This document shows, one piece after another, positions 45,547 to 62,701 of a DNA stretch of 64,000 nt. Each line of letters begins with the position of its first letter. Position 1 is the first letter of the stretch. The stretch covers positions 467,850-531,849 of the forward strand of contig JBLYPV010000001.1 of the NCBI GenBank assembly GCA_048538215.1, read 5' to 3'. The translations under genes were made by a program, and so were the position numbers. The notes below the pieces were generated by a model. It was not told the origin of the DNA, did not search any database, and saw only the letters and a list, made by a program, of their open reading frames with translations. The DNA comes from Patescibacteria group bacterium. GTDB taxonomy: Bacteria > Patescibacteriota > Minisyncoccia > Phycocordibacterales > GCA-2747955.

Positions 45547-45591
45547 AGTATGAGTATATCAGATACACAAGTGTTGGCCTTCGATCTTGAT

Positions 45592-45822
45592 TTACAAAGG
45601 ATAATTCTTTAGCTCGGCTCGCTTAAGCGAGCGCTCTTCTCGGAGCTTTTCTAAAATTTCTCCATCACCTGGTCGGTGCTCACCTTGTCCGAGATAGTGC
45701 TCCATTGCAGAGATGCGATCTTCAATCTTGCGCAGATCTTCTTCGATTCGATTACGCGCTTTGTCTCGCTCTGCCATTTCACGTAAGCGTCGATGGGGAG
45801 CTGATTCGAAAGGATTTTTCAT
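45592..45822 (-). CDS. Small charged hypothetical protein (DUF465/YdcH-like?)
   Basis: 76-aa helical, E/R-rich ORF. Confidence 0.3.
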   Translation of the reverse strand: MKNPFESAPHRRLREMAERDKARNRIEEDLRKIEDRISAMEHYLGQGEHRPGDGEILEKLREERSLKRAELKNYPL

Positions 45823-45965
45823 TGCCTTAGTATATCAAAAACACCGGGTTCTCATAGACTTATGGGGAAGAGTGATACGCACGGCAAAGCATAGGGGGGA
45901 ATATCTGTTCATATTTTTTAAGTTTTTCTATTTTCTCTATTTACCTTATTCGTGTAAATCATTTT

Positions 45966-46002
45966 ATGCTAAAAGTTGTCCGGGTTCGACAACTTTCACC
46001 AT
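45966..46002. repeat. Family-B palindromic element (ATGCTAAAAGTTGTCC-GGGTT-CGACAACTTTCACCAT)
   Basis: Inverted repeat read in the sequence; located in the promoter region upstream of the 46063 operon. Confidence 0.7.
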
Positions 46003-46062
46003 AAAATAAATAGTGGATAAATATCTTTTATTTATCTTATAAAATTGATAGGGTAAAAAATA

Positions 46063-47397
46063 ATGAGCGGGCTAGAGGACCATTTCACTCGAGCAAAGCA
46101 ACACAAATACGCGGGGCGTAAGCTCTTATGGTGGGGCCTGCACCCATTTCTTTTTATCATTATCTTTTCAGCGGTGCGTGCGGATGATGATTTTTATGCC
46201 ACTCTTCAAGGCATACTTTCTGTCAAAGATGGTCGAGTCGGTATCCAAAGTGCTAGCCTCCAGGGGGCGCTCAATATAGGAGGGCAAGCCCAGGCCACCA
46301 AAGGTATTGTGGCTCTAGGTGATGATGGGCAAGCCCATACCATTATTTCTGCTACCGAAGATGGGGGCTTGTGTGTGGGCGAGTGTGGAGAAGAGAGCAC
46401 TGCTAGTACCACAAGTGCAAGCACCTCGGTACAGAGTCGTGCCACCAACGAAGATACTGCTAGTACAAGCTCGAGCCAAGAAGCTACTGATCGTGCCACA
46501 GACGAGAAAAATGATGATCAATCAAGTATAAGCTCCAGTAAAAGCATAAATGCAACTTCGAGTGCCTCTAGTACCGACACAGGATCACCCAATCAATCAC
46601 CGGCCACATCTTCAGATCCCCAGACAGAATCAGGAGATTCATCCTCAGATGACAAAGAGGGTACCGTGCGCTTCACCGGAAAGAGAAGCTCAGGTGGAGG
46701 ATCATCAAATGATGGCTCTGATGAAGAGATTATAGTAGAGGAGATTCCTCATCAAGACACGGGGAGTACAAGCACGAGTAGTGAAGCAGTAGGTTTGTAT
46801 GATGCATTTGCTACTCTCCTCCAGTCTGTTTTATCAATTGGGAGAGGAAGCTTGGGGGTAGGAATGCAGGCGCTTGATGCCTATCGATTGGCGGTAAATG
46901 GCTGGATATTCACCACCGAAGGAATCATAGTAGGAGCACAGGGCGATCAGCAAGTAGGCTTTGGTATTAGCTCAAATGGGATGTGCCTTGGTAGGTGCGA
47001 CTTCGATATTTCAGAGCCTATCAATGTCGAAGCGAATGAAGAAGAAGCAAATAGGACACCACCAGAATCAGACGAAGATGATGCACCTAAAGTACAAGCC
47101 ACTACTCTCATCGCCACAAGCAGTGAGAGCGTCAGCTCTAGCCCAATCACCGGTACAAGTAGCACCAGCACAAGCCCTGCTGGCTTGCAAGAGGGAGGAG
47201 CTGATCAAGAGGTCGAAGATTCAAGTGCAAGCACCACGAGTACTAGCACCCTCGCTACTACCACTGCCACTACTACAAGTACGAGCACCTCACCCAGTGC
47301 TCAAGAAGCAAAAAATGAAATTGCCACATCCACTGCCTCTTCAAGCCAAGAGCAGGGCGCTTCAAGCACTACAAGTACAAGTAGCACTCCGCACTAA
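46063..47397 (+). CDS. Ser/Thr-rich secreted or anchored protein (low complexity) with two Cys-containing G-rich modules
   Basis: N-terminal hydrophobic anchor; more than 40% S/T in linkers; motifs GGLCVGECGEE and GMCLGRCDFD. Confidence 0.5.
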   Translation: MSGLEDHFTRAKQHKYAGRKLLWWGLHPFLFIIIFSAVRADDDFYATLQGILSVKDGRVGIQSASLQGALNIGGQAQATKGIVALGDDGQAHTIISATEDGGLCVGECGEESTASTTSASTSVQSRATNEDTASTSSSQEATDRATDEKNDDQSSISSSKSINATSSASSTDTGSPNQSPATSSDPQTESGDSSSDDKEGTVRFTGKRSSGGGSSNDGSDEEIIVEEIPHQDTGSTSTSSEAVGLYDAFATLLQSVLSIGRGSLGVGMQALDAYRLAVNGWIFTTEGIIVGAQGDQQVGFGISSNGMCLGRCDFDISEPINVEANEEEANRTPPESDEDDAPKVQATTLIATSSESVSSSPITGTSSTSTSPAGLQEGGADQEVEDSSASTTSTSTLATTTATTTSTSTSPSAQEAKNEIATSTASSSQEQGASSTTSTSSTPH

Positions 47398-47399
47398 AT

Positions 47400-50300
47400 A
47401 TGTTTTTAATAGACCAACAAAAAAGAGGGAAAATAGGGATCGTAATACTATTATTTGGTACAGGGATAATCCTTCCTTCACTTTGCTTGGCTCAAGAAGT
47501 GCCAGTAGCAACTATTCATAGTATAAAGCCTAATGGGCACTGGCATGATTCCAGCACATGGCTAGAGCATCGTATTCCCACCACAGATGATGTCGTGTAT
47601 GTGGATGTGCCTATAAAAATGAGGCACCAGCCTACGATTGTTCGTGGTCTGCACATTACCCCTTCGGGAAGGATTGATGGCTTAGGAAAGTATAATAATG
47701 GCTATCTTGCAGTGAGTGATTATTTTTATAACCAAGGAAGCATTGGCCGGAATATGTTTGAGCTTAAGCTAGGAGGGTGGATACGAGCCCTTGGGAGTAT
47801 TGCACTTAATAAAATCCGATTAAGTGGAGGGGAGATAGAGCTACCTCCAGTGGTGAATCACAATCTTTCTCTCACAAGAGATATTAGCCTTGTCAATCAA
47901 TCGCTAAAGCTTGGTGGTAGATTTGAAACAAATAATCGTATCATTACCCTGACCGCTACGAGCACTGATTTAGAGCTAGAGAATCCAGTAGACAAGCTTA
48001 TCGTCTACGGTACGAGCACTATTAATATAGGTCGGGAAGAATCGGAAGCAAGGATGATAGTAGATAGCATACAAGCTGCCTCATCTACTGTGCACTTTCA
48101 AGCTCCTAATATGGGCATAAATGGTGATGTTCGTGCAGAGAAAATATATATACATCATAGCCTCAAGCTTGAGGAGTCCAATATACGATTTACTGGAGAT
48201 GTCTATATCAAGCCGGGAGGCTACATCAATGGCGAAGCCTGGCGAGTAGTACACTGGTTTGAAATTGTGGGCGACTTGATCAATTATGGCTCGGTGGGGC
48301 CGTATGTCTATCTACATTTATGGGGGAGCTTGCACAATCATGGAAGTTATAGCAATTCGCAAGGTTTGGTGTTGCGAGGTGATGGAGAACGAAATTTTAT
48401 CGGTAGTATTCCCAATAAAGTATATTTGCGAGGTAATCAGATTTGGAGGTCTTCCCCTACTTTGTATGTTTTAGATACAGGTGGATACGAGATTACCCTT
48501 CCTCAAGGGGTAGGCCTCGCGCTCTCCAGTAGCAATGGTGATCTCAAAGTTGCTGGCTCGGGCGTTATCACCTATGTAGACCCAGTAACTCCCGACTACC
48601 AAGCATACGCTAGAGCTATTTATGCCCCAGATGCACGAGTGATTTTTGGTGCCAAGGGCTCGATATCTGATGATATTAGCGCCAATGTTATTGAAATCCG
48701 TGATCGATTAGAGGTAGCAGATTCTCTTACTATGAATGCCAATCAAGTAGCCTTTATCGGTGGGACTTTGCAGAGTGACAGCGAAAAATACAAGCGTCTA
48801 GTAGAGATCAACACCCCTTCTCTCCGGGGAGCTGGGCACCTAGGAAGCTACCTGGAGGCGTACTTTAATACAGATATTCCGCGAGGATTTAGTGCCGGAT
48901 GGAATACAGGAATCTATTTGCGTCACCGAGCAGATCAGACAGGCGATCAATTCAAGCTTGCAAGCTCAAGCGAAAGTATACTCGCTGGCATACAAGATAT
49001 TTTCTTAGATAGAGAGCCAAATTTGCGAGAGGTGCTCAATTCAGGAAAAGCCCACTACTATAGCTATCATAGCAATAATAGCTGGAGCGATATCTGGAGC
49101 ATCAATGCTGAGTACAACCCTTTTAATCTTCAAGAGGAATTAGCTCGGCGAAGCTATTTTGATTTTTCTTTTGTTCCACATCAGCAATCAGGAGAGCCAT
49201 TTTGGGTGCAAATTACTGCTCGGGATGCTACGTATGCTGGCGAGCTACATTTGAGTGCAAAGCGAGGAAGGGTATCACCTCGCCGGATTACACTAAGCGA
49301 TGGTAGCTGGCAGGGGGAGCTACGAATAATTGGTGAAGGTAGTGGAGAACAGCTAGTCGCTACTGGCTTGGGCAAATACGCAGGATACTCTGGACGATCA
49401 AATTATTTTGGTGTCAGCCAAGCGCAAGCCCTTGAGGGGGTGATTCGAGGGGTAGTACGGAGTGCTTCTGGAGCCCGTATTGATTATGGCTTGGTGGAAT
49501 TTACCGATCTCACCACCGGGGAGCATTGGAGCACTAGCATTGATAGCAATGGAAGATATAGCATCGCTCTGCCTTGCGGGGCATATGAGGTAAAAGCTTC
49601 GGGGGCAAGTTTGCGCAGTCTTTCTCTTTCCTGTGGTGAGACAATTATTTATGATATAGAGATAAGTAGATCTTGTGTAGCAGATAGGCGTATCCCAGTC
49701 ATCTTTGTGCCGGGGATTCAAGGATCAGATTCTTCTGATAATCCAACAGTCATATTCCCTGAGCTTCTCTCCTACGCCCCTCGCTGGGACTCTGCTAAGC
49801 TTCATCTGCATGATCCATTTGGTGCTGTGGGCTGGAAGCGCTTGCAAGAAGCACTCGAAGAGGAGGGCTATCGATATGGATGTACTATTTTTGCCGCTCC
49901 CTATGATTGGGCACTTTCGGCACAAGATAGTGCCGAGCAATATTTGATGCCAATGATAGAGCACGCCAAGAAAGTAGCATCCTCTACCCAGGTAGATATT
50001 GTGGCGCATTCGATGGGGGGATTGGTGGCTCGGGTGTATATTCAAGGCGAGGAATATCAGGGTGATGTTCGCCGTTTTGCTATGGTGGGCACTCCCAATG
50101 CTGGATCGGCAATGGCATATTTTTCTTGGGAGGGAGGAGATACAGAGCAGGCCGATAGCTATGGTGGTAATTTTTTTGAACATTTACTATCAAAAATTCA
50201 ACAAACAAATCAATTTCAAACGAAAACGACCGTAAAGAATCATTTGATAAAGACAGGAGAAGAAAAGCCACTGTGCTGGGGCTTTGGCCCACCATCAGAA

Positions 50301-50786
50301 TATACTGCTTGTGACCGAGAGCGGATCAAAGCATTTTTGCAGAGCTACGCACCATCGGTGGGCGAGCTCTATCCCAGCTACGATTTTCTCTTCGACGAGC
50401 AAAGCAAAAAAATGATAACACCAGCATTTGAAAATACCCTACTCCGTGCTCTCAATAATCAAGAGTGCGAGGAGGGCGATTGTGGATATAATTTTATCCC
50501 AATTGCAAAGCAAGGGGTGGAGATCCGCAATTTTGTGGGACTTGAAGAGAATATTCTTGGGCCTCGTCGTCATACACTTGAAAATATATATGTTTCACCT
50601 TCAAAAAATATAAGGTATGATTATTCTGATGGTAAGATAGAAATGCTAGAGTCGGGGATAGGTGATGGAACGGTGTTGGTGGATAGTGTACAGGCGGTTA
50701 AAGCACGGAGTGAGTTTTTGGACGAAAAACATTCTGCTCTAATTAAGAATATGAAAGATCAGATTAAAAATTTTTTAACTGAATAG
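47400..50786 (+). CDS. Large secreted protein (1128 aa): N-terminal signal peptide, beta-rich region, CarboxypepD_reg-like domain, C-terminal alpha/beta-hydrolase lipase/esterase domain
   Basis: Signal peptide IVILLFGTGIILPSLCLA; carboxypeptidase-regulatory-like GVIRGVVRSASGARIDYGLVEFTDLTTGEHWSTSIDSNGRYSIALPCGAYEV; lipase nucleophile elbow VAHSMGGLV preceded by IPVIFVPGIQGS. Three bp after the upstream stop. Confidence 0.6.
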   Translation: MFLIDQQKRGKIGIVILLFGTGIILPSLCLAQEVPVATIHSIKPNGHWHDSSTWLEHRIPTTDDVVYVDVPIKMRHQPTIVRGLHITPSGRIDGLGKYNNGYLAVSDYFYNQGSIGRNMFELKLGGWIRALGSIALNKIRLSGGEIELPPVVNHNLSLTRDISLVNQSLKLGGRFETNNRIITLTATSTDLELENPVDKLIVYGTSTINIGREESEARMIVDSIQAASSTVHFQAPNMGINGDVRAEKIYIHHSLKLEESNIRFTGDVYIKPGGYINGEAWRVVHWFEIVGDLINYGSVGPYVYLHLWGSLHNHGSYSNSQGLVLRGDGERNFIGSIPNKVYLRGNQIWRSSPTLYVLDTGGYEITLPQGVGLALSSSNGDLKVAGSGVITYVDPVTPDYQAYARAIYAPDARVIFGAKGSISDDISANVIEIRDRLEVADSLTMNANQVAFIGGTLQSDSEKYKRLVEINTPSLRGAGHLGSYLEAYFNTDIPRGFSAGWNTGIYLRHRADQTGDQFKLASSSESILAGIQDIFLDREPNLREVLNSGKAHYYSYHSNNSWSDIWSINAEYNPFNLQEELARRSYFDFSFVPHQQSGEPFWVQITARDATYAGELHLSAKRGRVSPRRITLSDGSWQGELRIIGEGSGEQLVATGLGKYAGYSGRSNYFGVSQAQALEGVIRGVVRSASGARIDYGLVEFTDLTTGEHWSTSIDSNGRYSIALPCGAYEVKASGASLRSLSLSCGETIIYDIEISRSCVADRRIPVIFVPGIQGSDSSDNPTVIFPELLSYAPRWDSAKLHLHDPFGAVGWKRLQEALEEEGYRYGCTIFAAPYDWALSAQDSAEQYLMPMIEHAKKVASSTQVDIVAHSMGGLVARVYIQGEEYQGDVRRFAMVGTPNAGSAMAYFSWEGGDTEQADSYGGNFFEHLLSKIQQTNQFQTKTTVKNHLIKTGEEKPLCWGFGPPSEYTACDRERIKAFLQSYAPSVGELYPSYDFLFDEQSKKMITPAFENTLLRALNNQECEEGDCGYNFIPIAKQGVEIRNFVGLEENILGPRRHTLENIYVSPSKNIRYDYSDGKIEMLESGIGDGTVLVDSVQAVKARSEFLDEKHSALIKNMKDQIKNFLTE

Positions 50787-50787
50787 T

Positions 50788-51060
50788 ATGAAATATTTTA
50801 AGTTTATTTTGTCCATAGGATATGTCTACTTTGGACTTGTTACTTTGCTAAATACACTACAACAAGGAGGCTCAGGACAATGGCATTATAATGTTTTTGG
50901 CCAAAGTAATCCTATTATCTTAGATTGGTGGTTGGTGATTATTCCTTCAATTATCATCACCGCTTTGATTGCTCGATATACTGATAGTAAAACTCAAACA
51001 ATTTTCTTTTATTTGTTTACCGGTCTGGTCGTCTTCCTGATTGTTGGTACATATTTATAA
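50788..51060 (+). CDS. Small 3-TM membrane protein, paralog 1
   Basis: ATG one bp after the lipase-gene stop. Clear paralogy with the next ORF (MKY.K.I...GG...WW..IPS.I....ARY...GT.L). Confidence 0.5.
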   Translation: MKYFKFILSIGYVYFGLVTLLNTLQQGGSGQWHYNVFGQSNPIILDWWLVIIPSIIITALIARYTDSKTQTIFFYLFTGLVVFLIVGTYL

Positions 51061-51072
51061 TTTCTTATTAGT

Positions 51073-51357
51073 ATGAAATATATAAAGTATATAATTGCCA
51101 TAGTATGGGTTCATATATGTACAGTAACTATACTACTAATAATAAGATCAGGTGGAGGTAACTTTTCCGTTAGTGATTTTTATGACGAATACACCGGATT
51201 TTGGGGCAATACCTACATCCAATGGTGGTGGGCGTTGATACCTTCTTTTATTGCCGTTGTGATTTATGCAAGGTATTTCTCGCGAGCAAGTCAGAGACGG
51301 ATTTTGATTTTGTACACAATCCTCGCCTTGTTGTTTATTTTAGGGACAAAATTATAA
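51073..51357 (+). CDS. Small 3-TM membrane protein, paralog 2
   Basis: Tandem duplicate of the previous ORF (~35-40% identity by eye). Confidence 0.5.
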   Translation: MKYIKYIIAIVWVHICTVTILLIIRSGGGNFSVSDFYDEYTGFWGNTYIQWWWALIPSFIAVVIYARYFSRASQRRILILYTILALLFILGTKL

Positions 51358-51373
51358 TAAAAATATATTTATA

Positions 51374-52564
51374 ATGAATACCATAGAGAAGCAATATATC
51401 TTTAATCTACATTATATCGGGCACAAGGTTTTTATCATCATCAGCATCCTGCTAGCTCCCCTGTGGGGATGGGCTCAATCGGATGTGCCCTTGCCTTTTC
51501 TCAGTATAGAGATAGGGGGCAATACGAGAATAATTATTACCGATCCAGAAGGCAATCGCACTGGCTCACAAGGATATGAAGTGCACAAGGCATCAGACAA
51601 TGCTCATTTGGTATTAGCATATGGTAAGCAATCTATTTCCTACGCCCAGCCAGTACTTGGCAAGTATGAGCTCGATCTGAAGGGCAGGCATAATGAGGTG
51701 TATGAGCTTGTGCTCGCTTGGTATGACGGGACTCAATATGAGCACCAGAGCTATCGATTCTATGCCAAAGCGGAGAGCTCTCGCAAGCTTGATATTACTT
51801 TGGAAGATGTGGGTGATGGTAGATGGCGAGTAAGCTCACCTAGCTTTGAGCAGGTATCTGCTCAGATTGGTAGATCAGAAAAAGATGAGAGTACAGTGTG
51901 GGTGTCTTGGCAGGCACTAGAAGGAGTGCGTAGCTATTATGTATATGCCAAAGAATCGGGGGCGATGCAATTTGAGCGAATTCTTAGCACAGAGGCTACC
52001 TCGAGCGCTACGGGTATTCCCTGGGGAGCGGATGCCAAGCTTGGGCCGAGCTATCTTGCCGTATCTGCTGTGCTAGAAAATGGCCGTGAGACAGCGCTTT
52101 CGCTCATACTCGCTACCGACGACAGCGATGGCGATGGCTATAGCGACGATCGCGAAGAAGCACGGGGTACCAATCCCTATGCACGAGATAGCGATGGCGA
52201 TGGGGTAGATGATTTTTTGGAAATTAATCGCTTTTATTCTGATCCGCTCAATCAGGACAGCGATGGCGATGACTATAGTGATGGTGAGGAAGTGAATGCG
52301 GGGACTCTCCCTAATAGTGATCGATCCTATCCGGGAGTGGGGCAAGAATGTGCCCCGCCTGCACAAGGGGATTGGGAAGTGCACAATGATTGTACGGTGG
52401 TGGAAAGTGATGTCATTCCCGCTGATCTGATTGTGTTTCCAAAAAGCATTTTGAGTATTGCACGGGGAGTCACGCTCTGGTTTGATTATTTGGAGCACTC
52501 GATCCTAGTTCTTTTTGGTGGAGGTATCAAAATGGCTCCTGATGCTCGTATTGAGCAACACTGA
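51374..52564 (+). CDS. Secreted protein with thrombospondin-type-3-like Ca-binding Asp repeats
   Basis: Signal/TM anchor; three DSDGDG(Y/V)xDxxE repeats (DSDGDGYSDDRE, DSDGDGVDDFLE, DSDGDDYSDGEE). Confidence 0.55.
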   Translation: MNTIEKQYIFNLHYIGHKVFIIISILLAPLWGWAQSDVPLPFLSIEIGGNTRIIITDPEGNRTGSQGYEVHKASDNAHLVLAYGKQSISYAQPVLGKYELDLKGRHNEVYELVLAWYDGTQYEHQSYRFYAKAESSRKLDITLEDVGDGRWRVSSPSFEQVSAQIGRSEKDESTVWVSWQALEGVRSYYVYAKESGAMQFERILSTEATSSATGIPWGADAKLGPSYLAVSAVLENGRETALSLILATDDSDGDGYSDDREEARGTNPYARDSDGDGVDDFLEINRFYSDPLNQDSDGDDYSDGEEVNAGTLPNSDRSYPGVGQECAPPAQGDWEVHNDCTVVESDVIPADLIVFPKSILSIARGVTLWFDYLEHSILVLFGGGIKMAPDARIEQH

Positions 52565-52604
52565 CGAGTAGGCAATAGATAGGCAAGAGCTTCCCAAATA
52601 AAAT

Positions 52605-52641
52605 ATGCTAAAAGTTGTCCGGGCTCGACAACTTTTAGCAT
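52605..52641. repeat. Family-B palindromic element (ATGCTAAAAGTTGTCC-GGGCT-CGACAACTTTTAGCAT); it is in a terminator-like position after the operon
   Basis: Read in the sequence. Confidence 0.7.
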
Positions 52642-52863
52642 AAAATGGGGGGAGGTGAAATAGGGGGGATGTATTTAATTAAATTATTTTTTAATTTTTT
52701 AATTTTAGATTGTGTCTACAATTGAAGAAGTGTATGTCTAATCCAAAGAATCTGTATTAAGTGGGAGAGGAGATATGCTTAAGGGGGTATGTATAAAATA
52801 AAGTTCGCCCGGAGGGCGCGCTTATTTATCTAATACTAAATGAAAAATACATTACTAGCTCTA

Positions 52864-53229
52864 TTACTCCCCCATATGAGCAATACAGGTAGGAGCTGAA
52901 GGATTTGCTTCTAGTCGCTCCTTTTCTATCTCTTTGCCACAGCGTACACAGAGCCCAAAGCTACCAGCATCGATACGATTAAGGGCTTCTTCCACCATAC
53001 GATAGCGTATCTCAAGCTCATTGGTGATTGATTCATTGCGAGTAAATGATTCAAGCTCTGTCCCTATCTCTACTGGGTCTAATGACGGTGGTTCGCTAGA
53101 GAAATCATCTTCACGGGCTTGAAAGCCCCCATCAGCGCGCTCATTTTTTATTGCTATTTTTCCAAGCTCTCTTTTCAAAAGCTCCTTATCTTTTTCCAAT
53201 CGCTCTTTATATTCTTGTATATCAGTCAT
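52864..53229 (-). CDS. DksA/TraR-family C4 zinc-finger protein
   Basis: CVRCGKEIEKERLEANPSAPTCIAHM (C-x2-C ... C-x2-H/C). Start set at MTDIQEY. Confidence 0.7.
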   Translation of the reverse strand: MTDIQEYKERLEKDKELLKRELGKIAIKNERADGGFQAREDDFSSEPPSLDPVEIGTELESFTRNESITNELEIRYRMVEEALNRIDAGSFGLCVRCGKEIEKERLEANPSAPTCIAHMGE

Positions 53230-53282
53230 ATTCGCGATTATACCTACTCGTGTAATTAGTGCAAGAAGAGCAAAATATAAAT

Positions 53283-53729
53283 AAAAAAAGAGCCCCAACG
53301 CGCGTGGGGCTCAAAAGTGCAGACGCACTCGGCTAGCCGAGAGTGTTGGCAGCCGAAGCTAGCCGAGCGCGTCATATCTTGCCGACCAAAGCAAGTCGCC
53401 ATAATTTTAGCAAATACCCCAAACTTGTCTAGGGCACGGAGGGTGGGGTGCCGTGCTTGCGCACGGCACCCCGATGATCAGGCTCGAGATCAATCGCTTG
53501 TGGCGACCGAGTGAGCTTCTGTATGGCAGCCATAGAGTGGGCTCGATATTCCTGCTGATTGCTCAACAAGAATCGAGCTTTCCTCCGATACGAAATTTGG
53601 CGGGAGTCTGTGAAGCTCTTCAGCCCCAAGCCCAATACCAAATCCGTAGCAGACTACCATTATTTTCATCATCGTTTTCTCCTTCGCTTTGGTCGGTTAT
53701 TTGCACCAGCAATCTGCCAATTGCCAATG
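53283..53729 (-). ncRNA. Unassigned structured ncRNA candidate (~450 nt) with its own promoter and terminator
   Basis: ORF-poor and GC-enriched relative to its surroundings. Extended -10 TGTGTATAAT on the minus strand (plus-strand coordinates 53738-53747). Intrinsic terminator GAGCCCCACGCGCGTTGGGGCTC plus U7 at 53283-53312. Long-range perfect 11-bp complementarity CCGACCAAAGC/GCUUUGGUCGG between the 5' and 3' parts; several strong local hairpins (GGGGUGCCGUGCGCAAGCACGGCACCCC; CUCGGCUAGC...GCUAGCCGAG). Contains GGAGGAAAG, reminiscent of RNase P RNA J3/4, but no CR-V element. Confidence 0.4.
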
Positions 53730-53808
53730 CGCGAGCTATTATACACAAAAAAATGCAATCGTATATGGAGGGCCTGGTGAGAAGTTTGCTATAATGGGCA
53801 CACAAGCT

Positions 53809-55380: not shown

Positions 55381-55463
55381 TTATATAATCCCAAAATCTT
55401 TATATAATCCCCAGGTATTTATACCTTGTTTTTGCTAATAGTGGGGGGTACAATAAATTTACT

Positions 55464-57665
55464 ATGCGGATTTTACAAAAATATAGCGTTTTACTAGCAA
55501 TACTAATTGCCCTGCCTCTCCTGCTAGCTCATCAAGCGTGGGCACAAGATGCCCAAGCAGAAATTGAAAATACTATTAGCGATATTAGTCTAGAGGCAGA
55601 GGGAGCAATTCTAGTATCAGGAAGCATCGCAAGCTCGAGTAATAGAGGCCCCTTCTATATTCAAGCAGTGCTTTCCGACAAAGATGGTATCACGCGCGAT
55701 AGAATCCAGAGCAGACAAGCTCTCATCCCTGGCTCTTCTTACGAAGAGCGATTCAAGTTTGGTCTCTCGCCTGTTACCAGTGATAGGGTAATACTTATGA
55801 CCGTCACCGAAAGCGGAATTCCCTTTGATATTGATCCTCTACAAATAAAGTGGAGTAGTGATACCCCAGAAGCCCGCACCAATGAGATCCTTGATATTAT
55901 TTCTTGTGAGCATCAAGACGCCTCAGAAGAGCTGGTTTGTAGCTATCGAGGAGAAGTGGATACTCAATCTATCACCGTACGGCTCTATGATGGTCAGCCG
56001 TATACTGCTACACAAATAGCAGAGACTACTTCTTTGATACAAGAAGAATTAGATGGAGAGCTTGTTTTAAGTGCCTTTGCCAAGCCACAAGAAGATGGCT
56101 TGTATATTTATACAATTACTGATGACCGAGGCACCCTACTACACCAAGGCTCTGTGCGTAGAGGAGCAATTCCTGGATTTGAAAAGGAGCAGTCACTTGC
56201 AGATCAAGAAAAGCAGGATCAGCAGAGATTTTTGATGATACTCGGTGCTTTGAGCCTTGCCTTTTTCACTGCAGTGATGATGCTTTCACAATTCTTATTG
56301 AACCCAAAGAAGACTCGTTGGATATGGATTGGGGTGGGAGCTCTTATTCTTGCTTTCTTGAGTGTGTGGTATGTCGCTTATGCAGCCACCTATCAATCTA
56401 CCAATTATCCGCAGTACCAATATGTAGTGGATGTTACTCCTATTGATGCCACCGAGAATGTAGATGGTGATGTAATCGATACGACCTATATCATTTCTTT
56501 TAGTGCCTTTGATACTTATACAGGCAATGCGCCTATGGAGCAAAAGGTAGATATTACCTTCGATGGCTCTACCTACCAAGCATTTATTCGAGATGAATCA
56601 GGAGAAGTGGTGCATTCTCGCCAGGTCACTATCGCCGAAAGTGAAAAGAACACGAGTGCTCTCAAGGTAGTCGATGGCTGTGGAAGCTACTACCAATTCT
56701 CTGAAGCAGGCACTGATGTATACGGGAGCTACGACTGTAGCCCATACCCACTCTTTAATCTTGATGCCACAATCGGCTGTATGAATCCAAATGCTAGTAA
56801 TTATGATCCGAGTGCTATCATTTCAAGCGGGCAATGTAATTTTGGGGGCTGTATCATCCCAAGCGCGCTTAATTACAATCCATCAGCCACTATTGATGAC
56901 GGCTCATGTGTGGTCGAGGGCTGTGTAAATCCAGAGGCTACTAATTATGATCCGAAAGCCACTATTGATGACGGCTCATGCCTCTGTGGCGGTGGCTCTT
57001 GCGAGGATGTATATGGCTGTACCAATCCTGAATCCTCAAACTTCAATGAGCTAGCCACTATTGATGACGGCTCGTGCGATAATTGTATGTGGATACCGAT
57101 TATTCCTGACCCTTCTACCTTCTGTGCTACCGAGATCTATTACCAAACCAATAGCTGTACAAAAGAAGTACGCACCGTACAAGGCAATTTGCAATCTAAG
57201 TGGCTCCCCGATATATCAGCAAATGATATTTGTATTGGTGATTTTGTCACCCAAACCGAGCAGTGCTCACCACTTGATAAGCCCGCCACTCGAGTGCTCG
57301 AGGGTACGAGCAATAGCCCATTCTGTTTTGCTCCCATTACAGAATTTGAAGTATCTACCAATCTCACTAATTGGACTAGTTGTGAAAAGATAGGTCGCAT
57401 CCAAATGACTCATCCGAGCCAAGAGCTTTACTTGCGACCATCAGGTACTGAGCCAGTAGACTCATGGGCAATTTCACAAGAAGCTGGAGAGATTAGTGGC
57501 TCGGTGAGCTCATATAAGGGAGATGTGTGGAAAGCACAATTCAATTATCTTGTTGAGCAAAAGCAATTCAATGATGTGTCGATTACTATGAGGTCGCCTG
57601 CAGGGAATGAGGCCACTCAGCTTTGTAATATTTCTCTCTTGAGCTTTAGTTTTGAGGAGCGCTAG
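55464..57665 (+). CDS. Surface protein with signal peptide, two central TM helices and a C-terminal array of ~33-aa Cys-containing repeats
   Basis: Four tandem repeats of the form GC.NP.A.NY(D/N)P.AT.DDGSC. Confidence 0.55.
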   Translation: MRILQKYSVLLAILIALPLLLAHQAWAQDAQAEIENTISDISLEAEGAILVSGSIASSSNRGPFYIQAVLSDKDGITRDRIQSRQALIPGSSYEERFKFGLSPVTSDRVILMTVTESGIPFDIDPLQIKWSSDTPEARTNEILDIISCEHQDASEELVCSYRGEVDTQSITVRLYDGQPYTATQIAETTSLIQEELDGELVLSAFAKPQEDGLYIYTITDDRGTLLHQGSVRRGAIPGFEKEQSLADQEKQDQQRFLMILGALSLAFFTAVMMLSQFLLNPKKTRWIWIGVGALILAFLSVWYVAYAATYQSTNYPQYQYVVDVTPIDATENVDGDVIDTTYIISFSAFDTYTGNAPMEQKVDITFDGSTYQAFIRDESGEVVHSRQVTIAESEKNTSALKVVDGCGSYYQFSEAGTDVYGSYDCSPYPLFNLDATIGCMNPNASNYDPSAIISSGQCNFGGCIIPSALNYNPSATIDDGSCVVEGCVNPEATNYDPKATIDDGSCLCGGGSCEDVYGCTNPESSNFNELATIDDGSCDNCMWIPIIPDPSTFCATEIYYQTNSCTKEVRTVQGNLQSKWLPDISANDICIGDFVTQTEQCSPLDKPATRVLEGTSNSPFCFAPITEFEVSTNLTNWTSCEKIGRIQMTHPSQELYLRPSGTEPVDSWAISQEAGEISGSVSSYKGDVWKAQFNYLVEQKQFNDVSITMRSPAGNEATQLCNISLLSFSFEER

Positions 57666-57692
57666 AGCTAGAGGGTGTAGCTTGTAAAAGAC

Positions 57693-57730
57693 AAGAGCCC
57701 GCGCCTTCGGCGCGGGCTCTTATCTATGAG
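57693..57730 (+). terminator. Intrinsic terminator
   Basis: AAGAGCCCGCGCC-TTCG-GCGCGGGCTCTT followed by ATCTATGAGATTTTATTT. Confidence 0.6.
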
Positions 57731-57769
57731 ATTTTATTTAAAACAAGAAGCCAGACACCCCAGATAAAA

Positions 57770-58816
57770 TTACTTGCGTATCATTTTGAGAATCTGCTTG
57801 AAATAAGCGCGCCCTATATACGGGTAATACCACCAAGAAGTAGGCAAATCATAGCGGGGATAATGCAAGAGCTTTTCCCCACCAAAGCCGAGCTTGAATT
57901 GATTGAGCCCGGCTAAGGATGCGTCATCTTCTCCCACACTAATACCACCCCAATTAAAATCTTGAATACCTTGCTCCTTGAGATGCTTGATAATCTCCCA
58001 TTTGATAAAGTAGTAAGCACCTAATTCGCGCTTGCCTCGCTCGGTGCTGGCTCCATAGGGGCAATAGGCGTGCTTGCCAAAGATAGTGATGATATTGATA
58101 GCGTGGATTTCTTGCTCGCTGTCTCGCACCACCGCTACAAATGATTTTTTGTTGCCCGCGAGCGCTTCAAAAAGTATTTTAAAATGAGTATCACTATGAG
58201 TAGTGGTGTGGTGAGCTTGAGTAGTGGCTTGATTGATACAGATAAAATCATCACGAGAGCCAAGTAGATCATTGCCGTAAGCAAATTCTATAGATAGATT
58301 ATTTTTTTGTGAGGCAGTAATATTTCGTCGAGTACTTTTAGAGCACTTGTGCCAGAGAGTATCAATTGGGGCTTTGAGATTTAATAGTGCTTCACCTTCG
58401 GCTTGAGCAAAGCTTGTTGTATTAGGATAGGGGGCTTGGCGAAAAGCTTGATGAGGGCGAGGAAGCTCGAGCCGGAGGAATATAAGCTTGTGACGAGAGG
58501 CATAATCACGCAAAAAATTGGCGAGCTCATCAAGGATAGTGTCATCCGGAGAGCTAAGCCATACAGGGCCGTACGGAATATCTGCAAGTTTTAAGCCATA
58601 GCCGAGGGGATAATGAATGATTGCAAAGTAGCCGATGATTTTTTTGCTTGATTCTTCTTCGATGATAAGGTGCTCCGCATCACGATTGAGCTTGTGCTGG
58701 AAATCTAGATACTCCAAGCTATGTTGCCAGTGAGCAATATCCAATCGTGCCCATTCTCCTGAAGGTGCTGTGCGAAATATATAGCGAGGGCTTGTCATAT
58801 CTATAGAGTATAGCAA
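57770..58816 (-). CDS. FemAB-family peptidoglycan peptide-bridge aminoacyltransferase-like protein
   Basis: GNAT-like tandem fold; signature NWGGIS...LNQFKLGFGG resembles the FemX/FemAB motif. Confidence 0.55.
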   Translation of the reverse strand: MLYSIDMTSPRYIFRTAPSGEWARLDIAHWQHSLEYLDFQHKLNRDAEHLIIEEESSKKIIGYFAIIHYPLGYGLKLADIPYGPVWLSSPDDTILDELANFLRDYASRHKLIFLRLELPRPHQAFRQAPYPNTTSFAQAEGEALLNLKAPIDTLWHKCSKSTRRNITASQKNNLSIEFAYGNDLLGSRDDFICINQATTQAHHTTTHSDTHFKILFEALAGNKKSFVAVVRDSEQEIHAINIITIFGKHAYCPYGASTERGKRELGAYYFIKWEIIKHLKEQGIQDFNWGGISVGEDDASLAGLNQFKLGFGGEKLLHYPRYDLPTSWWYYPYIGRAYFKQILKMIRK

Positions 58817-58873
58817 ATACCAAGCAGGTGTATCTAGGGGCCAATACTGGGGTATGCAGACTATTTATAATTT

Positions 58874-58909
58874 ATGGTAAAAGTTGTCCAGCTGGACAAC
58901 TTTTACCAT
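58874..58909. repeat. Family-B palindromic element, 36-bp perfect (ATGGTAAAAGTTGTCCAGCTGGACAACTTTTACCAT)
   Basis: Perfect palindrome in the divergent promoter region between the femAB-like gene (-) and the 59107 gene (+). Confidence 0.75.
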
Positions 58910-59106
58910 AAATCGTTGAAATAATTTAAGGCTTATTCCTAGAGCGGATGAGCTTGCTATTCTAAGGTTTTAAGTTAAGTGATGTACTTAAAAGCCAAAG
59001 GCCTGAAATATGCATTTTTATATTACAAATCCCACTTTTCTAGTATCTTTGTGTATAAGTAGCGCTCTTGTATGCTTCGTTCGCGTGTATAATTATGAGA
59101 AGTAGT

Positions 59107-61278
59107 ATGTCATTTTTTGCCGCTAATCATCAGGAGCGACCGAAAGCAGGAAATGTCCGAATTATCGGGCTCTTTGCTTGTGCTCTGCTCTTGCCTGTGC
59201 TCGCTTTTGCACAGCAATCGGCTCCTCCGGGCAATAATACCGATCCACCTATCAATACGGGGAGCGCCTCACAGATAAAGGCAGGAGGGCTGAGCCTCGG
59301 CTCTTTAGTAGTAGAAGGGGGTATTATTTTTGAGGGCAATCTGGGGATTGGCACTAGTGGGCCAGCTAGTAGCCCGCTTGAGGTAGTGGGCAGTGCGGTG
59401 AGTATTATTTTTGGTCAGAATGATAATCCAGCTTATCAAGCCCAGCTTATAAGTGGTGATTCTTTCTATGGCTTTCGTGATGGTGATGGGGCTAGCACCT
59501 TGAGCATCTTGCAATCCAATGGCTCTGTGGGTATCGGCACTACTACTCCATTACAAAAATTACACGTAGATGGCAATCTGGCGCTTACTACAGGGCAACA
59601 CATTTATTTTGGAGGCACTAGTGGGCAAGACCTGTATGGTGATGGAGCCACAGCACTTTATTTTGATTCTGCAAGTGCCAACACGGCATATTTTCTTATG
59701 CGTAATTCAGTCAATGCTCCTCTGGGCTATTTGTATGGAGACAACACAGGTAATTTTGGCTTACTTGATGCAGATGGCAATTGGGCTATCCAAAGTGATA
59801 CCGACGCCAACATCAATTTCCGAGTAAACAACGATGAAAAAATGCGCATCCTCTCGAGTGGCAATGTGGGGATTGGGACAGCGAGTCCCGGATTGAAATT
59901 TGATGTATCAAATACATCAAATCAAGCTAATTTGGGAGTTATCCGTACAGATGGCAAATGGGCTACCCTATATGCAGGTTCTGGATTTTCAGGGATAGGG
60001 TTTGATAATTCAGGATATTTCAATATTAGTCCAGAATCTTCTCGTACCGGAACTACGGCAGGCGGAGGGTTGACTATTAATAATCTGGGCTCTGTCGGCA
60101 TCGGCACCACAGCTCCCAGCGCAGGGCTCAAGCTAGATGTGGCAGGCAAGGTAGGAGCTACAGAGTATTGTGATGCAGATGGAGCTAATTGTACCCTTGC
60201 TGCTAGCTTGGGGGGAGGCGATAATTTGGGCAATCACACTGCCACTCAAAATCTTGTACTTGGAAACAATAGTATCACTGGCATCGGAGAGCTTCAATTT
60301 AATAGTGGAAGCAATCATAGTATTACCTCAAATGCTGCTGGGCTTATTTTTGATGGGGGTGACGGTACTCCTGACTTTTTAATCTACGATAATCAATCAT
60401 ACACCAACAATCTTATGCTAGGATATAATGGCACAGCTATTCTCTCTACCTACGACACCAATGAAGACCTGCAGATATCTGCTAATGGTACGGGGATAGT
60501 AGATATCAATGATAGTGTAGATATTTCAGGTGAACTCACCCTCTCTTCTGCTCGAAAGATCAATTTTGGTAGCCAGGAATTGTATGGAGATAATAACACT
60601 CATTTATACTTTGATTCTAATAATGTTAGTATTGCAAGTTTTATGCTCCGTAATTCCAATAATGCAGTTATCGGTTCACTTCATGGGACTAATACTGGTA
60701 TGTTTGGATTATTAAATGGTTATGGCAATTGGATCATTCAATCAAATCTCGATGACAATATCAATTTTCAGGTATCTAATAGTGAAAAAATGCGCATTGA
60801 TTCTGCTGGACAAGTGCAAATTGCTACCACTACCGCTACCTCATCACTCAAGCTTGCGGTAGATGGCAAGGTAGGAGCTACCGAGTATTGTGATGAAAAT
60901 GGAAATTATTGTAGATCACTAGCTGCTGGCTGGCCATTTATCAGCTCACCGATAGCACATCCTGGAAATGGTAATGCTATTGTAGTAAATCATAATTTAC
61001 CCGCTGCCCCCAATGAAGTCCAGGTAGATATAGTAAATGTAGCAGCTAGCGGTGTATTTGACGGTGGATATACCACGGGGGAACGTATTTATAATGTACC
61101 GAGCTTGTCTCAAACAAATGACGGTCTTCACCAGATGGGAATAGTAGTGATGACAGATAATAGTAGTCAGATAAAAATGAGAGTCTCTTCTCTGGGTTTT
61201 TTTATGGTGCAAAAAGATAGCGGTGCTCCATTTAGGTTGGATCCTACTAAGTGGAGCTTTATCGTTAAAGCCCGGTAA
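59107..61278 (+). CDS. Secreted tail-fibre-like repeat protein with internal duplication (GNVGIGT...KLDVAGKVGATEYCD modules)
   Basis: Signal peptide; repeated GN(V/L)GIGT(S/A)xP...L(K/E)(L/V) motifs; two ~250-aa halves each ending KL(D/A)V(A/D)GKVGATEYCD(A/E)(D/N)G. Confidence 0.55.
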   Translation: MSFFAANHQERPKAGNVRIIGLFACALLLPVLAFAQQSAPPGNNTDPPINTGSASQIKAGGLSLGSLVVEGGIIFEGNLGIGTSGPASSPLEVVGSAVSIIFGQNDNPAYQAQLISGDSFYGFRDGDGASTLSILQSNGSVGIGTTTPLQKLHVDGNLALTTGQHIYFGGTSGQDLYGDGATALYFDSASANTAYFLMRNSVNAPLGYLYGDNTGNFGLLDADGNWAIQSDTDANINFRVNNDEKMRILSSGNVGIGTASPGLKFDVSNTSNQANLGVIRTDGKWATLYAGSGFSGIGFDNSGYFNISPESSRTGTTAGGGLTINNLGSVGIGTTAPSAGLKLDVAGKVGATEYCDADGANCTLAASLGGGDNLGNHTATQNLVLGNNSITGIGELQFNSGSNHSITSNAAGLIFDGGDGTPDFLIYDNQSYTNNLMLGYNGTAILSTYDTNEDLQISANGTGIVDINDSVDISGELTLSSARKINFGSQELYGDNNTHLYFDSNNVSIASFMLRNSNNAVIGSLHGTNTGMFGLLNGYGNWIIQSNLDDNINFQVSNSEKMRIDSAGQVQIATTTATSSLKLAVDGKVGATEYCDENGNYCRSLAAGWPFISSPIAHPGNGNAIVVNHNLPAAPNEVQVDIVNVAASGVFDGGYTTGERIYNVPSLSQTNDGLHQMGIVVMTDNSSQIKMRVSSLGFFMVQKDSGAPFRLDPTKWSFIVKAR

Positions 61279-61469
61279 AGTTTGTAGCTTGATGATGGGG
61301 GATGAGGAGGGCGGGGCCAAAGGCCCCGCCCTCTTCCTTTCAATCCTTAAAAATCAAGGATTGAAAGGATTAAGATTTCTAAGCCCTACAAATGGGAGAA
61401 TAATCACCCCCCATTTATACACAAGCCCCCACTTATCAAACACCCAATAATTAGCTACTATAAAGCTAT

Positions 61470-61919
61470 ATGAAACACATACTCAAAAACACCACACTCG
61501 TCTTGGGAGGTATTGCCCTTGCTATAGGCAGTATGGTATTCGCTGCTACCTGGCAAGGCACTGATACTATTCAAAATGGACAAATCATAGAAGCAGATGT
61601 TATTAAAGATAATTTTGATTATTTGTATGAGCTAGTAGGGGAAGTGAAAGCTAGTTGTAGTGGAGGAGGAAGTATTATCCTAGGAAAGAACCCTATTACG
61701 GGTGAAAATATCACTCAATCACTACCAGCTAATGGAGGAGAGCATCTACAAGTAGCAGGAGCAGATGGAACAGTATACCAGTGTCTTGATGGTAGCTGGA
61801 ACGCTATCAATATGGGCTCAGGAGCAACATCTAATAATCCATGTCCTCCTGGACAGCAATTGGTGAATTCTGGTGGTGGGATGATGGTATGTAATCCAGG
61901 CGCTGGAGGCCCACAATAA
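61470..61919 (+). CDS. Small secreted Gly-rich protein
   Basis: Signal peptide LVLGGIALAIGSMVFA; no family recognised. Confidence 0.4.
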   Translation: MKHILKNTTLVLGGIALAIGSMVFAATWQGTDTIQNGQIIEADVIKDNFDYLYELVGEVKASCSGGGSIILGKNPITGENITQSLPANGGEHLQVAGADGTVYQCLDGSWNAINMGSGATSNNPCPPGQQLVNSGGGMMVCNPGAGGPQ

Positions 61920-62025
61920 AAAGGGCAAGCCAAGCCCACAGAGACTCGCAACAAAAGCAAAACAAGCGCTTTGTTTTTGTTTTATTCTAAGAATGTGAGG
62001 ATGTTTGCTTTATTTCGATAGAGAA

Positions 62026-62063
62026 AATGGTAAAAGCTGTCCGAGCTCGGACAGCTTTTACCA
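62026..62063. repeat. Family-B palindromic element, 38-bp perfect (ATGGTAAAAGCTGTCCGAGCTCGGACAGCTTTTACCAT); it is in a terminator-like position
   Basis: Read in the sequence. Confidence 0.75.
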
Positions 62064-62170
62064 TTTTTGTTTTCTCTCTCTTATTCTAATCTAAGTAGCA
62101 GACAAGCTTAAGGAGGCAGGGCTATATATGCTATAATAGGCGCACCATATATTTAATATAAAATAGCAAT

Positions 62171-62701
62171 ATGACAGATTACAATACTTTATACACCCCT
62201 GGAGATATTGATAAAGGAATGATTAATACAGTGATAGAAATCCCCCAAGGGTCGATGCATAAAATAGAATACAATCGAGAGCTGGGCACCTTTGAATTGG
62301 ATCGAGTAGAGCCAGGTATTTTTGCTAAGCCGACTAATTATGGCTTTATTCCCGCCACCCTTGATGATGATGGCGATGAGCTCGATACTCTCGTGGTAGT
62401 AGGAGAGCCACTGCCTCTGGGAGTGGTGGTACGGGCTCGAGTAATAGGTATTCTTGAATTTGAGGATGATGGTGAAATGGATCATAAGGTAATCTGCGTG
62501 CCTGCTGATGATAGACACGAAGGATCTCGTATCCAATCAATAGATGATTTGGGAGAAGTGTGGAAGCAGAAGATAGAGCATCATTTTACCCACTATAAAG
62601 ATCTCAAAAAGCCTGGAAGCACCAAAGTGCTTGGCTTTGGAGATGTGGGCAAAGCCAAAGAGGTGATACAGGAATGTATTGATCGCTGGCAGAATCGCTA
62701 G
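62171..62701 (+). CDS. ppa: Inorganic pyrophosphatase (family I)
   Basis: Conserved EIPQGS...KIEYN...DGDELD(V/T)LV motifs. Confidence 0.9.
   Translation: MTDYNTLYTPGDIDKGMINTVIEIPQGSMHKIEYNRELGTFELDRVEPGIFAKPTNYGFIPATLDDDGDELDTLVVVGEPLPLGVVVRARVIGILEFEDDGEMDHKVICVPADDRHEGSRIQSIDDLGEVWKQKIEHHFTHYKDLKKPGSTKVLGFGDVGKAKEVIQECIDRWQNR

Follow-up and report, generated by a model that had tools for sequence, protein, structure and literature searches.

The palindromes known as REP (repetitive extragenic palindromic) or BIME (bacterial interspersed mosaic element) sequences in Enterobacteria and Pseudomonas are 20-40 nt long, lie between genes in tens to hundreds of dispersed copies per genome, and combine a stem that covaries with a stem base that is conserved. 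Some members are terminators or mRNA stabilisers and bind proteins, and duplication and gene conversion have been proposed for those of E. coli. Bidirectional Rho-independent terminators have an A-tract/stem-loop/T-tract symmetry, are strictly intergenic and need no conserved 9-nt arm or loop. In the Patescibacteria (candidate phyla radiation, CPR), which are uncultured and have tiny genomes with very few recognisable regulators, almost nothing is known, to our knowledge, about cis-regulatory DNA. Here we describe family B, a set of 36-38 bp palindromes in a 64-kb stretch from a Patescibacteria group bacterium (assembly GCA_048538215.1, contig JBLYPV010000001.1, positions 467,850 to 531,849 of the forward strand). 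This stretch, the window, was the single source sequence analysed, and all copy counts for the source genome refer to its 64,000 nt. Family B is best described as a small, clade-conserved family of repeated extragenic palindromes in which both the sequence of the arms and centre and the pairing of the inner stem are maintained. It appears to be undescribed, yet it belongs to known kinds of element. The window holds four copies, all intergenic and confined to 16 kb, listed here with their scores in a covariance model of the family:

45966-46002, c1, 37 bp: ATGCTAAAAGTTGTCCGGGTTCGACAACTTTCACCAT; imperfect palindrome; 46.3 bits (+ strand)
52605-52641, c2, 37 bp: ATGCTAAAAGTTGTCCGGGCTCGACAACTTTTAGCAT; 15 of 16 model pairs paired, 7-nt loop; 50 bits
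58874-58909, c3, 36 bp: ATGGTAAAAGTTGTCCAGCTGGACAACTTTTACCAT; perfect palindrome, symmetry over 58870-58913; 56.3 bits
62027-62064, c4, 38 bp: ATGGTAAAAGCTGTCCGAGCTCGGACAGCTTTTACCAT; perfect palindrome, symmetry over 62024-62067; 49.6 bits

Family B resembles REP and BIME sequences in size, in its conserved stem base and covarying stem, in being strictly extragenic here, and in a genome-specific consensus that suggests concerted evolution. It differs from them in lacking the GTAG/CGTC tag (its arms begin ATGG, ATGC, TTGG or CTTG), in its preference for positions upstream of promoters, in numbering four copies in 64 kb, and in its stems, which are AT-rich and perfect where those of REPs are GC-rich and bulged. 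No REP-associated tyrosine transposase (RAYT) was seen among the main open reading frames (ORFs) of the window. With bidirectional Rho-independent terminators family B shares the tract symmetry and the strictly intergenic location, and c2, which is convergent, and c4, which is in tandem and has a T-run, fit such terminators. Most members, by contrast, lie upstream of divergent promoters and have weak inner stems with no T-run after the hairpin, and the arm and loop are both kept across genomes.

An earlier note on this DNA had reported four copies of one consensus, at 45966, 52605, 58874 and 62026. All four exist, the last of them starting at 62027, one nucleotide later. Two had been called perfect palindromes, and these are c3 and c4, where the symmetry in fact extends to 44 bp and continues past the shared motif into copy-specific flanks. 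The quoted consensus fits c3 and c4 exactly, but c1 and c2 start with ATGC instead of ATGG; in c2 this start is compensated in the opposite arm (AGCAT), c1 has two uncompensated mismatches, and both have a 7-nt loop. To call the palindromes identical was an overstatement, as c1 and c2 differ at three positions and c3 and c4 at four. Cross pairs in the window differ at 5-7 positions; the two copies of each flanked operon are thus mutual nearest relatives, and c3 is the window copy nearest to those of relatives. The exact consensus pattern matched twice in the window (0.00 expected), and a 14-nt half-site with up to 2 mismatches matched eight times (0.61 expected), each time in one of the eight arms. 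The covariance model placed the four copies within 29-56 bits and all remaining window hairpins at 18 bits or less, so the window contains exactly four members.

We found five further members in two related metagenomic populations. Two of the loci carrying them, L124 and L127, are from JGI sample 3300038702 (tatD 74% and femX 55% identical to the window genes), and two others, L126 and L131, are from ENA sample ERZ23499442 (tatD 69%, femX 57%); the shared samples suggest that each pair represents one population. The gene backbone of L124 is chlI, vanY, tatD, a 76-aa ORF and, further on, dksA. The relatives' copies are:

L124a: ATGGTAAAATACATACAGCTGTTGCTATTTTACCAT; in the divergent region beside the 76-aa ORF, the position of c1
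L124b: ATGGTAAAATAGAAACGATTGTTTCTATTTTACCAT; upstream of a pilin gene absent from the window
L127: ATGGTAAAATACAAACAGCTGTTTGTATTTTACCAT; 96.5 nt upstream of femX (93.5 nt for c3)
L131: TTGGTAAAATAGGTTCAGCTGAACCTATTTTACCAT; upstream of femX
L126: CTTGTAAAATATGAGCGATGGCTCGTATTTTACAAG; upstream of a pilin gene

The nine members scored 29-56 bits, and other hairpins in the window and the relatives' loci scored 23 bits or less. L124a and L127 differ from each other at three positions, and c1 and L124a are decaying copies. The palindromes of L127 and L131 are orthologous in site to c3. When the regions upstream of femX from the window and these two relatives were aligned (femX 55-57% identical in amino acids), only a -10 box, the outer 9-mers and the CAGCTG centre could be matched. 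No family-B copy was found in four other loci, from more distant relatives (L125, L132, L129 and L133), which have terminator palindromes of their own at gene 3' ends. In metagenome contigs an arm pattern specific to the window gave four chance matches and missed the relatives' copies, which have different inner stems; in viral contigs the window-specific pattern gave 0 matches.

The basic form of the element is 36 bp long and consists of ATGGTAAAA, six variable nucleotides, C-AGCT-G, the six complementary nucleotides and TTTTACCAT. Across three genomes the outer arms ATGGTAAAA/TTTTACCAT are nearly invariant and the AGCT centre is usually kept, while the inner sequence is common to the copies within one genome. 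At the femX site the six inner bases read GTTGTC, TACAAA and TAGGTT in the three genomes, and each is fully complementary to its partner. Over 16 pairs and nine members, 94.4% of cells are paired (36-45% in slid controls); double-sided changes occur at 9 of the 16 pairs, in 24 cells, which was matched by 0 of 500 shuffles, and a single cell is a G-U pair. An arms-only pattern gave more than 120 matches in viral contigs, and its 125 co-occurrences of both arms served as a negative control. The inner part of these chance pairs is not complementary (mode 2-3 of 9-10 pairs), so the inner complementarity is a property of family B. The length is exactly 36 bp in six of the nine members, including all five of the relatives' copies, and all six lie upstream of gene starts. 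Exact ATGGTAAAA occurs solely as inverted pairs in the window and in L124. Family B recalls in this respect the inverted DNA-uptake sequences of Neisseria and Pasteurellaceae, which are specific 9-12-mers kept among related species and found as inverted pairs in intergenic hairpins that form terminators. Uptake sequences, however, have a frequency of about one per kb and are found within genes as single copies too; the family-B 9-mer is never found singly above chance.

The genes around the four copies are:

44707-45546, - strand: tatD, left of c1, with a TATACT box 6 nt before its ATG
45592-45822, - strand: conserved 76-aa ORF, left of c1, likewise with a TATACT box 6 nt before its ATG
46063-52564, + strand: operon 1, five genes, all for secreted or membrane proteins, namely 444 aa (Ser/Thr-rich, N-terminal transmembrane helix), 1128 aa (CarboxypepD_reg and LCAT/lipase-like hydrolase domains), 90 aa and 94 aa (membrane proteins) and 396 aa (TSP3 repeats)
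52864-53298, - strand: dksA/yteA-like gene, backbone to the right of c2, with its own short GC hairpin (52806-52818) between the gene and c2
57770-58798, - strand: femX (lipid II:glycine glycyltransferase, 342 aa), the backbone gene beside c3, with its -10 TATACT at 58807-58812
59107-61919, + strand: operon 2, a 723-aa gene (start 59107, ACKKL4_02850) and a 149-aa gene (61470-61919)
62171-62701, + strand: inorganic pyrophosphatase gene downstream of c4
63135-63719, + strand: PaaX-like gene (PaaX_M/Cas2-like domain, weak match to a PadR winged helix-turn-helix, wHTH)

The proposal that the copies lie at the 5' and 3' ends of both operons, and that these operons encode secreted or surface proteins, was confirmed: all seven proteins of the bracketed genes have a signal peptide or an N-terminal transmembrane helix. 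Copy c1 lies between the 76-aa ORF/tatD pair and operon 1, 6 nt from an AATAGT box, and its centre is 79 nt 5' of the ATG at 46063. Copy c2 follows the stop of the 396-aa gene, the last of operon 1, by 40 nt and is convergent with the dksA-like gene. Copy c3 is situated between femX and the 723-aa gene, its centre 93.5 nt 5' of the femX ATG at 58798, and c4 is 107 nt past the stop of the 149-aa gene and 107 nt before the pyrophosphatase ATG. Bracketing is true of both window operons but is not a general feature, as all five of the relatives' copies are 5' copies. The genes beside family-B copies all have cell-envelope or surface functions (femX, pilin, LTD/PKD, tail-fibre-like, secreted hydrolase operon). 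The 723-aa protein (59107-61278) is secreted and repeat-rich, with an internal GxVGIGT motif and two copies of KVGATEYCD..G.NC; we call it tail-fibre-like because its homologues bear a Peptidase_S74/endosialidase-chaperone domain, and no paralogue was found on the source contig. The 149-aa protein is secreted and homologous at its N-terminus to a secreted protein with the same YCD motif that is encoded divergently from femX in L133 (9113-9895).

The position of a copy relative to promoters bears directly on what it can do. Of 44 first genes in the window, 24 have a TATAAT/TATACT-like box that ends 3-12 nt ahead of the start codon, most often at 6 nt. Examples are at:

45552-45557, -10-like box
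45829-45834, -10-like box
58807-58812, -10-like box
63124-63129, -10-like box

Promoters in this clade are of the extended -10 type TGnTATACT with no obvious -35, and we saw no Shine-Dalgarno sequence in the window genes, those internal to operons included. Since the -10-like box is so close to the start codons, the organism appears to use leaderless or near-leaderless mRNAs, and the annotated start of femX at 58798 is consistent with this pattern. As the promoters are placed 4-9 nt from the ATG, c1 and c3 are each upstream of the two divergent promoters of their region. Such regions are usually 39-62 bp long in the window; those that hold c1 (240 bp) and c3 (308 bp) are unusually long.

This arrangement strengthens the suggestion that the 5' copies make poor terminators. 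Five of the nine family-B members lie in divergent promoter regions, compared with 0 of 19 other window hairpins (Fisher p=0.0013); two hairpins that seemed to do so actually follow small genes, rpmH (11908-12042) and a conserved 60-aa ORF (53490-53672). The same small ORF, along with that of 76 aa, is kept in L124 (at 618-815 and 5968-6198, respectively), so both are probably real genes; the 76-aa protein is charged and probably helical. Only c2, c4 and arguably L124b and L126 are at the 3' end of a transcription unit, and the other five have no ORF ending nearby. Read from sequence, family B as a whole does not fit intrinsic terminators. Its general build is nevertheless that of the clade's generic terminators, which are long palindromes with 4-6 outer pairs, A4-6, a GC-rich stem, a loop, the returning stem, T4-6 and the outer pairs. 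All 22 window hairpins of at least 12 pairs are intergenic. A scan of the window with Rfam returned three tRNAs and nothing else.

The idea that the 3' copies terminate transcription is supported by their sequence. The inner stem of c4 (-13.8 kcal/mol) is followed on the + strand by TTTTTGTTTT, which is the build of an intrinsic terminator, and c2 has the T-run TTTTATTTGG on the - strand. Thus c2 and c4 probably also act as terminators. In the eight members other than c4 the inner stem ahead of T4 is weaker, at -2.3 to -9 kcal/mol. A T-run beyond the full hairpin is found at four of the nine members (c4, c2, L124b and L127), and c1 and c3 have an internal T4 only. The whole hairpins of intact copies are stable (-19 to -28 kcal/mol, z-scores -4.5 to -11), and c1 as RNA folds better on the - strand (-24.7 versus -14.7 kcal/mol). 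More than 119 unrelated genomes also contain the core of the copies, AAAAGCTGTCC-loop-GGACAGCTTTT, as a single T-tailed terminator that lacks the ATGG/CCAT extension; the inner AAAAGCTGTCC...GGACAGCTTTT is therefore a terminator sequence of convergent origin. The pattern used for these genome contigs, TAAAAGYTGTCC-N4-8-GACARCTTT, is too generic to be informative about family B itself. In Bacteroidota, Bacillota, Bifidobacterium and others, TAAAAGCTGTCC-loop-GGACAGCTTTT is a single-copy terminator, and a T-run comes after it in nearly every case. An imperfect hairpin with a T-run, AAAACAAGCGCTTTGTTTTTGTTTT, is present at 61955-61990, past the stop of the 149-aa gene and ahead of c4. Operon 2 may therefore already have a proximal terminator, in which case c4 would be a second, distal hairpin.

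We favour, with a probability of about 0.38, the interpretation that family B is a clade-specific dyad or hairpin which a protein recognises and which serves cell-surface transcription units as an operator-like element or a boundary, c2 and c4 doubling as terminators. Under this interpretation a protein, possibly the PaaX-like wHTH protein, would bind the element sequence-specifically and act at the upstream edge of surface units (femX, pilin, LTD/PKD, tail-fibre-like, the secreted hydrolase operon and the PaaX-like gene). The element could also form a hairpin, and the derived copies c2 and c4 at operon 3' ends would have gained flanking T-runs and could serve as intrinsic terminators or roadblocks. 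The earlier note had proposed a shared operator for a dimeric regulator, and this gains some support: the half-sites are conserved and arranged in dyad symmetry, arms and centre are kept at the orthologous site in three genomes, and in two relatives the element stands beside the promoter of a PaaX-like gene. In L127 and L131 alike, femX has as its divergent neighbour the orthologue of the PaaX-like gene of the window, a family-B palindrome lies between the two, and a conserved (T/A)ATACT box is exactly 9 nt from the palindrome on the PaaX-like side. With a -10-like box 9 nt away, the element covers the -35 region of this promoter. The -35 region is the classic site of autoregulation. From this arrangement we infer that the PaaX-like protein is a candidate binder of family B.

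The comparison with PaaX itself provides a lead. The E. coli PaaX operator, TGATTC-N27-GAATCA, spans 39 bp and has widely spaced half-sites (PMC9493321). Like this operator and other wide dyads such as CIRCE/HrcA, family B has inverted half-sites, a long spacer and a span in the range of 36-39 bp; it overlaps or adjoins the promoter of a PaaX-family gene in two relatives, and a coherent set of genes lies downstream. It differs in that TGATTC-N27-GAATCA is not matched, the family-B half-site being unrelated, and in that its spacer is self-complementary and varies in length by 1-2 bp in this genome. At 194 aa, the CPR protein is a short form without the C-terminal domain of PaaX, and its score of 20 bits is far below the PaaX equivalog cut-off of 264 bits. 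Terminator palindromes that double as transcription-factor sites are documented (bioRxiv 10.64898/2026.08.19.745784), so a dual role for family B is not far-fetched. Such dual palindromes (LexA at yobI/ruvA; promoter-coupled terminators, Fletcher et al. 2026 preprint) likewise combine an RNA hairpin with a duplex site and couple neighbouring units; they lie directly upstream of the next promoter on the same strand, whereas many family-B copies are in divergent regions with no upstream transcript.

Several observations weigh against an operator-like role. Copies of 36, 37, 37 and 38 bp in one genome shift the spacing and phase of the half-sites, which would be awkward for a rigid dimer, and the distances from the centres to the start codons (-54 to -135) showed no helical phasing. 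The inner part is under selection for self-complementarity (94% of cells paired, 9 of 16 pairs changed on both sides), which a protein that binds the duplex does not need; to accommodate it, an auxiliary assumption is needed, either hairpin-templated correction or recognition of a hairpin or cruciform. Compensations within this genome (c2 position 4, c4 position 11) likewise suit base pairing better than half-site recognition. Copy c2 has no promoter to regulate, and no element is found upstream of femX in L129 (femX 59% identical) or in the distant L133. The relatives' loci were reached through their tatD and femX neighbours, which biases the sampling, and the total is nine copies from three populations. 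Every promoter considered here was deduced from the nucleotide sequence. In addition, the PaaX-like gene of the window is preceded not by family B but by a dyad of another kind, family A.

Family A has the form GGTAGTATTTA-GTGTCAGGTGCAAA-TAAATACTACC, with arms of 11-17 bp and a conserved 14-nt spacer that is not self-complementary. It is at least as good as family B as a candidate operator of the PaaX-like protein. Copies flank a pilin gene (10187-10684) on both sides, and likewise the PaaX-like gene (63135-63719); one copy is upstream of the gene of an extracytoplasmic function (ECF) sigma factor (5719-6279). A look-alike in L125, AAATAGTACCACC-N16-GGTGGTACTATTT at 11562-11603, directly follows the PaaX-like gene of that locus. 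The copies in the window are:

6332-6371, family A
~10080-10125, family A, inverted
10773-10814, family A
62943-62988, family A
63922-63957, family A

A conserved 36-bp element beside pilin, peptidoglycan-bridge and fast-evolving surface genes and beside a PaaX_M/Cas2-like wHTH gene would be a testable handle on the control or diversification of the cell surface in these episymbionts. That an element built like a terminator is used at positions that are not those of terminators is also relevant to the emerging view that terminator palindromes can have second functions. If family B proves to consist only of terminators or REP-like hairpins, the finding is an ordinary one.

That last possibility is the strongest alternative, and we think it only somewhat less likely than the interpretation we favour. 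It states that the copies are RNA hairpins that act only when transcribed, as bidirectional terminators, insulators or 3'-end stabilisers that delimit transcription units, and that the family likeness arises by duplication and gene conversion. The 5' copies would then protect two leaderless promoters, that of an operon and that of the divergent neighbour, against read-through or antisense transcription. The build shared with generic terminators, the stability of the whole hairpins of intact copies (-19 to -28 kcal/mol), the use of the c4 core as a common terminator in more than 119 unrelated genomes, and the occurrence of c2, c4 and L124b at 3' or tandem positions with T-runs along the direction of transcription all agree with this. 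So do the strong stem covariation with its single G-U cell, expected if both strands must fold, and the fact that copies of one genome are more alike than orthologous copies elsewhere. Against the hairpin explanation stand the five of nine members that lie where no annotated transcript crosses, which is true of no other hairpin. Selection on structure alone is also insufficient to keep the outer 9-mers and AGCT where the rest of the intergenic DNA cannot be aligned, the fixed 36-bp size is left unexplained, the relatives' copies have weak, AT-rich inner stems, and in most copies the full hairpin is not followed by a T-run.

The earlier note also raised the possibility that the palindromes are recombination or boundary sites. 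On this account they are sites, or portable homology, at which surface-protein cassettes insert, swap, invert or excise, possibly by way of a recombinase that recognises hairpins, of DNA uptake followed by homologous recombination, or of breakage that the palindrome induces. We consider it improbable. The content of neighbouring genes does vary. The slot between tatD/76-aa ORF and dksA holds five secreted or membrane genes in the window (46063-52564) and LTD/PKD, Bac_transf and epimerase genes in L124 (1701-5715); L125 (11637-15912) has the same set as L124. Next to femX stands the tail-fibre-like operon in the window; in L127 and L131 the PaaX-like gene takes this place. L124 and L126 carry, between vanY and tatD, a pilin gene that has a palindrome of its own and is absent from the window. 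The sister relationship of c1 with c2 (3 differences) and of c3 with c4 (4, against 5-7 for cross pairs) is as a duplication of the attL/attR type would give, and the conserved base and variable stem recall integron attC sites. The window contains the exact 10-mer ATAGGGGGGA just two times, at 45891-45900 (66 nt left of c1) and at 52660-52669 (19 nt right of c2), just outside the two copies, and each time a similar ATTTTTTAA(G/T)TTTTT stretch follows; the pair may be a trace of a duplication tied to the insertion of operon 1, or chance.

Direct support for recombination was not obtained. A comparison of relatives, as the earlier note had suggested, showed differences in gene content but no empty site, no inverted configuration and no target-site duplication; the flanks of family-B copies differ or continue the palindrome. 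No Pfam match to an integrase, invertase, transposase or RAYT/Y1 transposase was found among the main window ORFs (a few ORFs below ~110 aa were not scanned). The L124 cassette has family B at its 5' side only and an ordinary GC hairpin at its 3' side, where the dksA orthologue has its own GC hairpin 41 nt past the stop. In the distant L133, femX already has a homologue of the 149-aa protein as its neighbour, and operon 2 is therefore not a recent insertion. Perfect palindromes confer no directionality, and at 55-75% protein identity synteny breaks land in intergenic junctions regardless. Compared with integron attC and pdif sites, which share the conserved hairpin base, the variable stem and the position at the edges of variable gene cassettes, family B is 36 bp rather than 57-141 bp long, fully symmetric, and has no extrahelical bases, no R/L boxes and no integrase/Xer context, and the cassettes here carry their own promoters. 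A version of the cassette idea that needs no integrase, in which a protein would read the stem base and AGCT loop of boundary sites in hairpin form and surface units would be exchanged or re-inserted through competence uptake, would explain why the elements are at every synteny break seen, why each operon has sister copies, and why the fastest-evolving surface-protein genes are the neighbours; we hold it to be quite improbable.

We give a similarly low likelihood to the view that family B is a small palindromic repeat, neutral or selfish, that serves the host in no way, its symmetry kept by hairpin-templated mutation (quasi-palindrome correction). The copies would persist in long, tolerant intergenic regions, and two would merely happen to sit where terminators are needed. 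The confinement of copies to unusually long intergenic regions (240-308 bp versus 39-62 bp for ordinary divergent ones), the reach of perfect symmetry into copy-specific flanks, the decay of c1 and L124a, and the empty femX sites of L129 and L133 are in line with this view. It does not account for the retention of arms and centre at the femX site in three divergent genomes with randomised flanks, or for the fixed 9-nt spacing to the -10-like box in two of them; neither a mobilising enzyme nor a target-site duplication was seen, and the 64 kb examined contain very few copies.

Lastly, the arms, which read TGGTAAAAT in relatives, could be taken for inward-firing extended -10 elements, making each palindrome a face-to-face promoter pair or symmetric bidirectional promoter, as the clade's TGnTATACT boxes and the location of elements in divergent regions might suggest; this is hardly credible, as all eight window arms read TAAAAG and lack the critical final T, neighbouring genes have their own -10 boxes beside their ATGs, two RNA polymerases would collide, and c2 faces no gene.

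Other identities were rejected, five of them by reading the sequence, with no dedicated test. As a sigma-54 promoter the element has a GG/TTG spacing that is 2 nt too short, and the match is missing in relatives. A leaderless micro-ORF (ATG GTA AAA) does not keep its frame in the 37- and 38-bp copies, and a decent -10 box for a tiny small RNA gene is present in only ~4 of the nine copies. A resemblance to a BirA-like operator in L126 was set aside, as was a dif-like 11-6-11 reading, which lacks dif features. Family B is also not a MITE (miniature inverted-repeat transposable element), as the whole element is one palindrome without a consistent flanking direct repeat, and it is not parS: the 16-bp palindrome TGTTNCACGTGAAACA is unrelated to family B, and the parS-like sites cluster at 2936-7649.

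The window includes a replication origin, marked by rnpA, rpmH, dnaA, dnaN, a perfect DnaA box, the cluster of parS-like sites and the GC-skew minimum:

11496-15128, origin region with rnpA (- strand), rpmH, dnaA and dnaN
11908-12042, - strand: rpmH, missing from the ORF list
12108: perfect DnaA box
12310-13656: dnaA
14013-15128: dnaN

The GC content is 0.34 in the AT-rich stretch behind dnaA, and the cumulative GC skew is lowest at ~12-14 kb. The parS pattern matched six times in the window (1.76 expected). Five parS-like sites (TGTTTCAyGTGAAACA with 1-3 mismatches) are at 2936-2951, 6603-6618, 6878-6893, 7307-7322 and 7634-7649; the cluster is 5-9 kb from dnaA, and four of the five sites are inside the gene of the CCA-adding enzyme. 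A further palindrome, perfect over 46 bp and without A/T tracts (AGAGACTACTGACTAGTGCACGG/CCGTGCACTAGTCAGTAGTCTCT, 21245-21290), lies between a T2SSE ATPase gene and ruvB and is unlike families A and B and the generic terminators; it overlaps the listed GTG start of ruvB.

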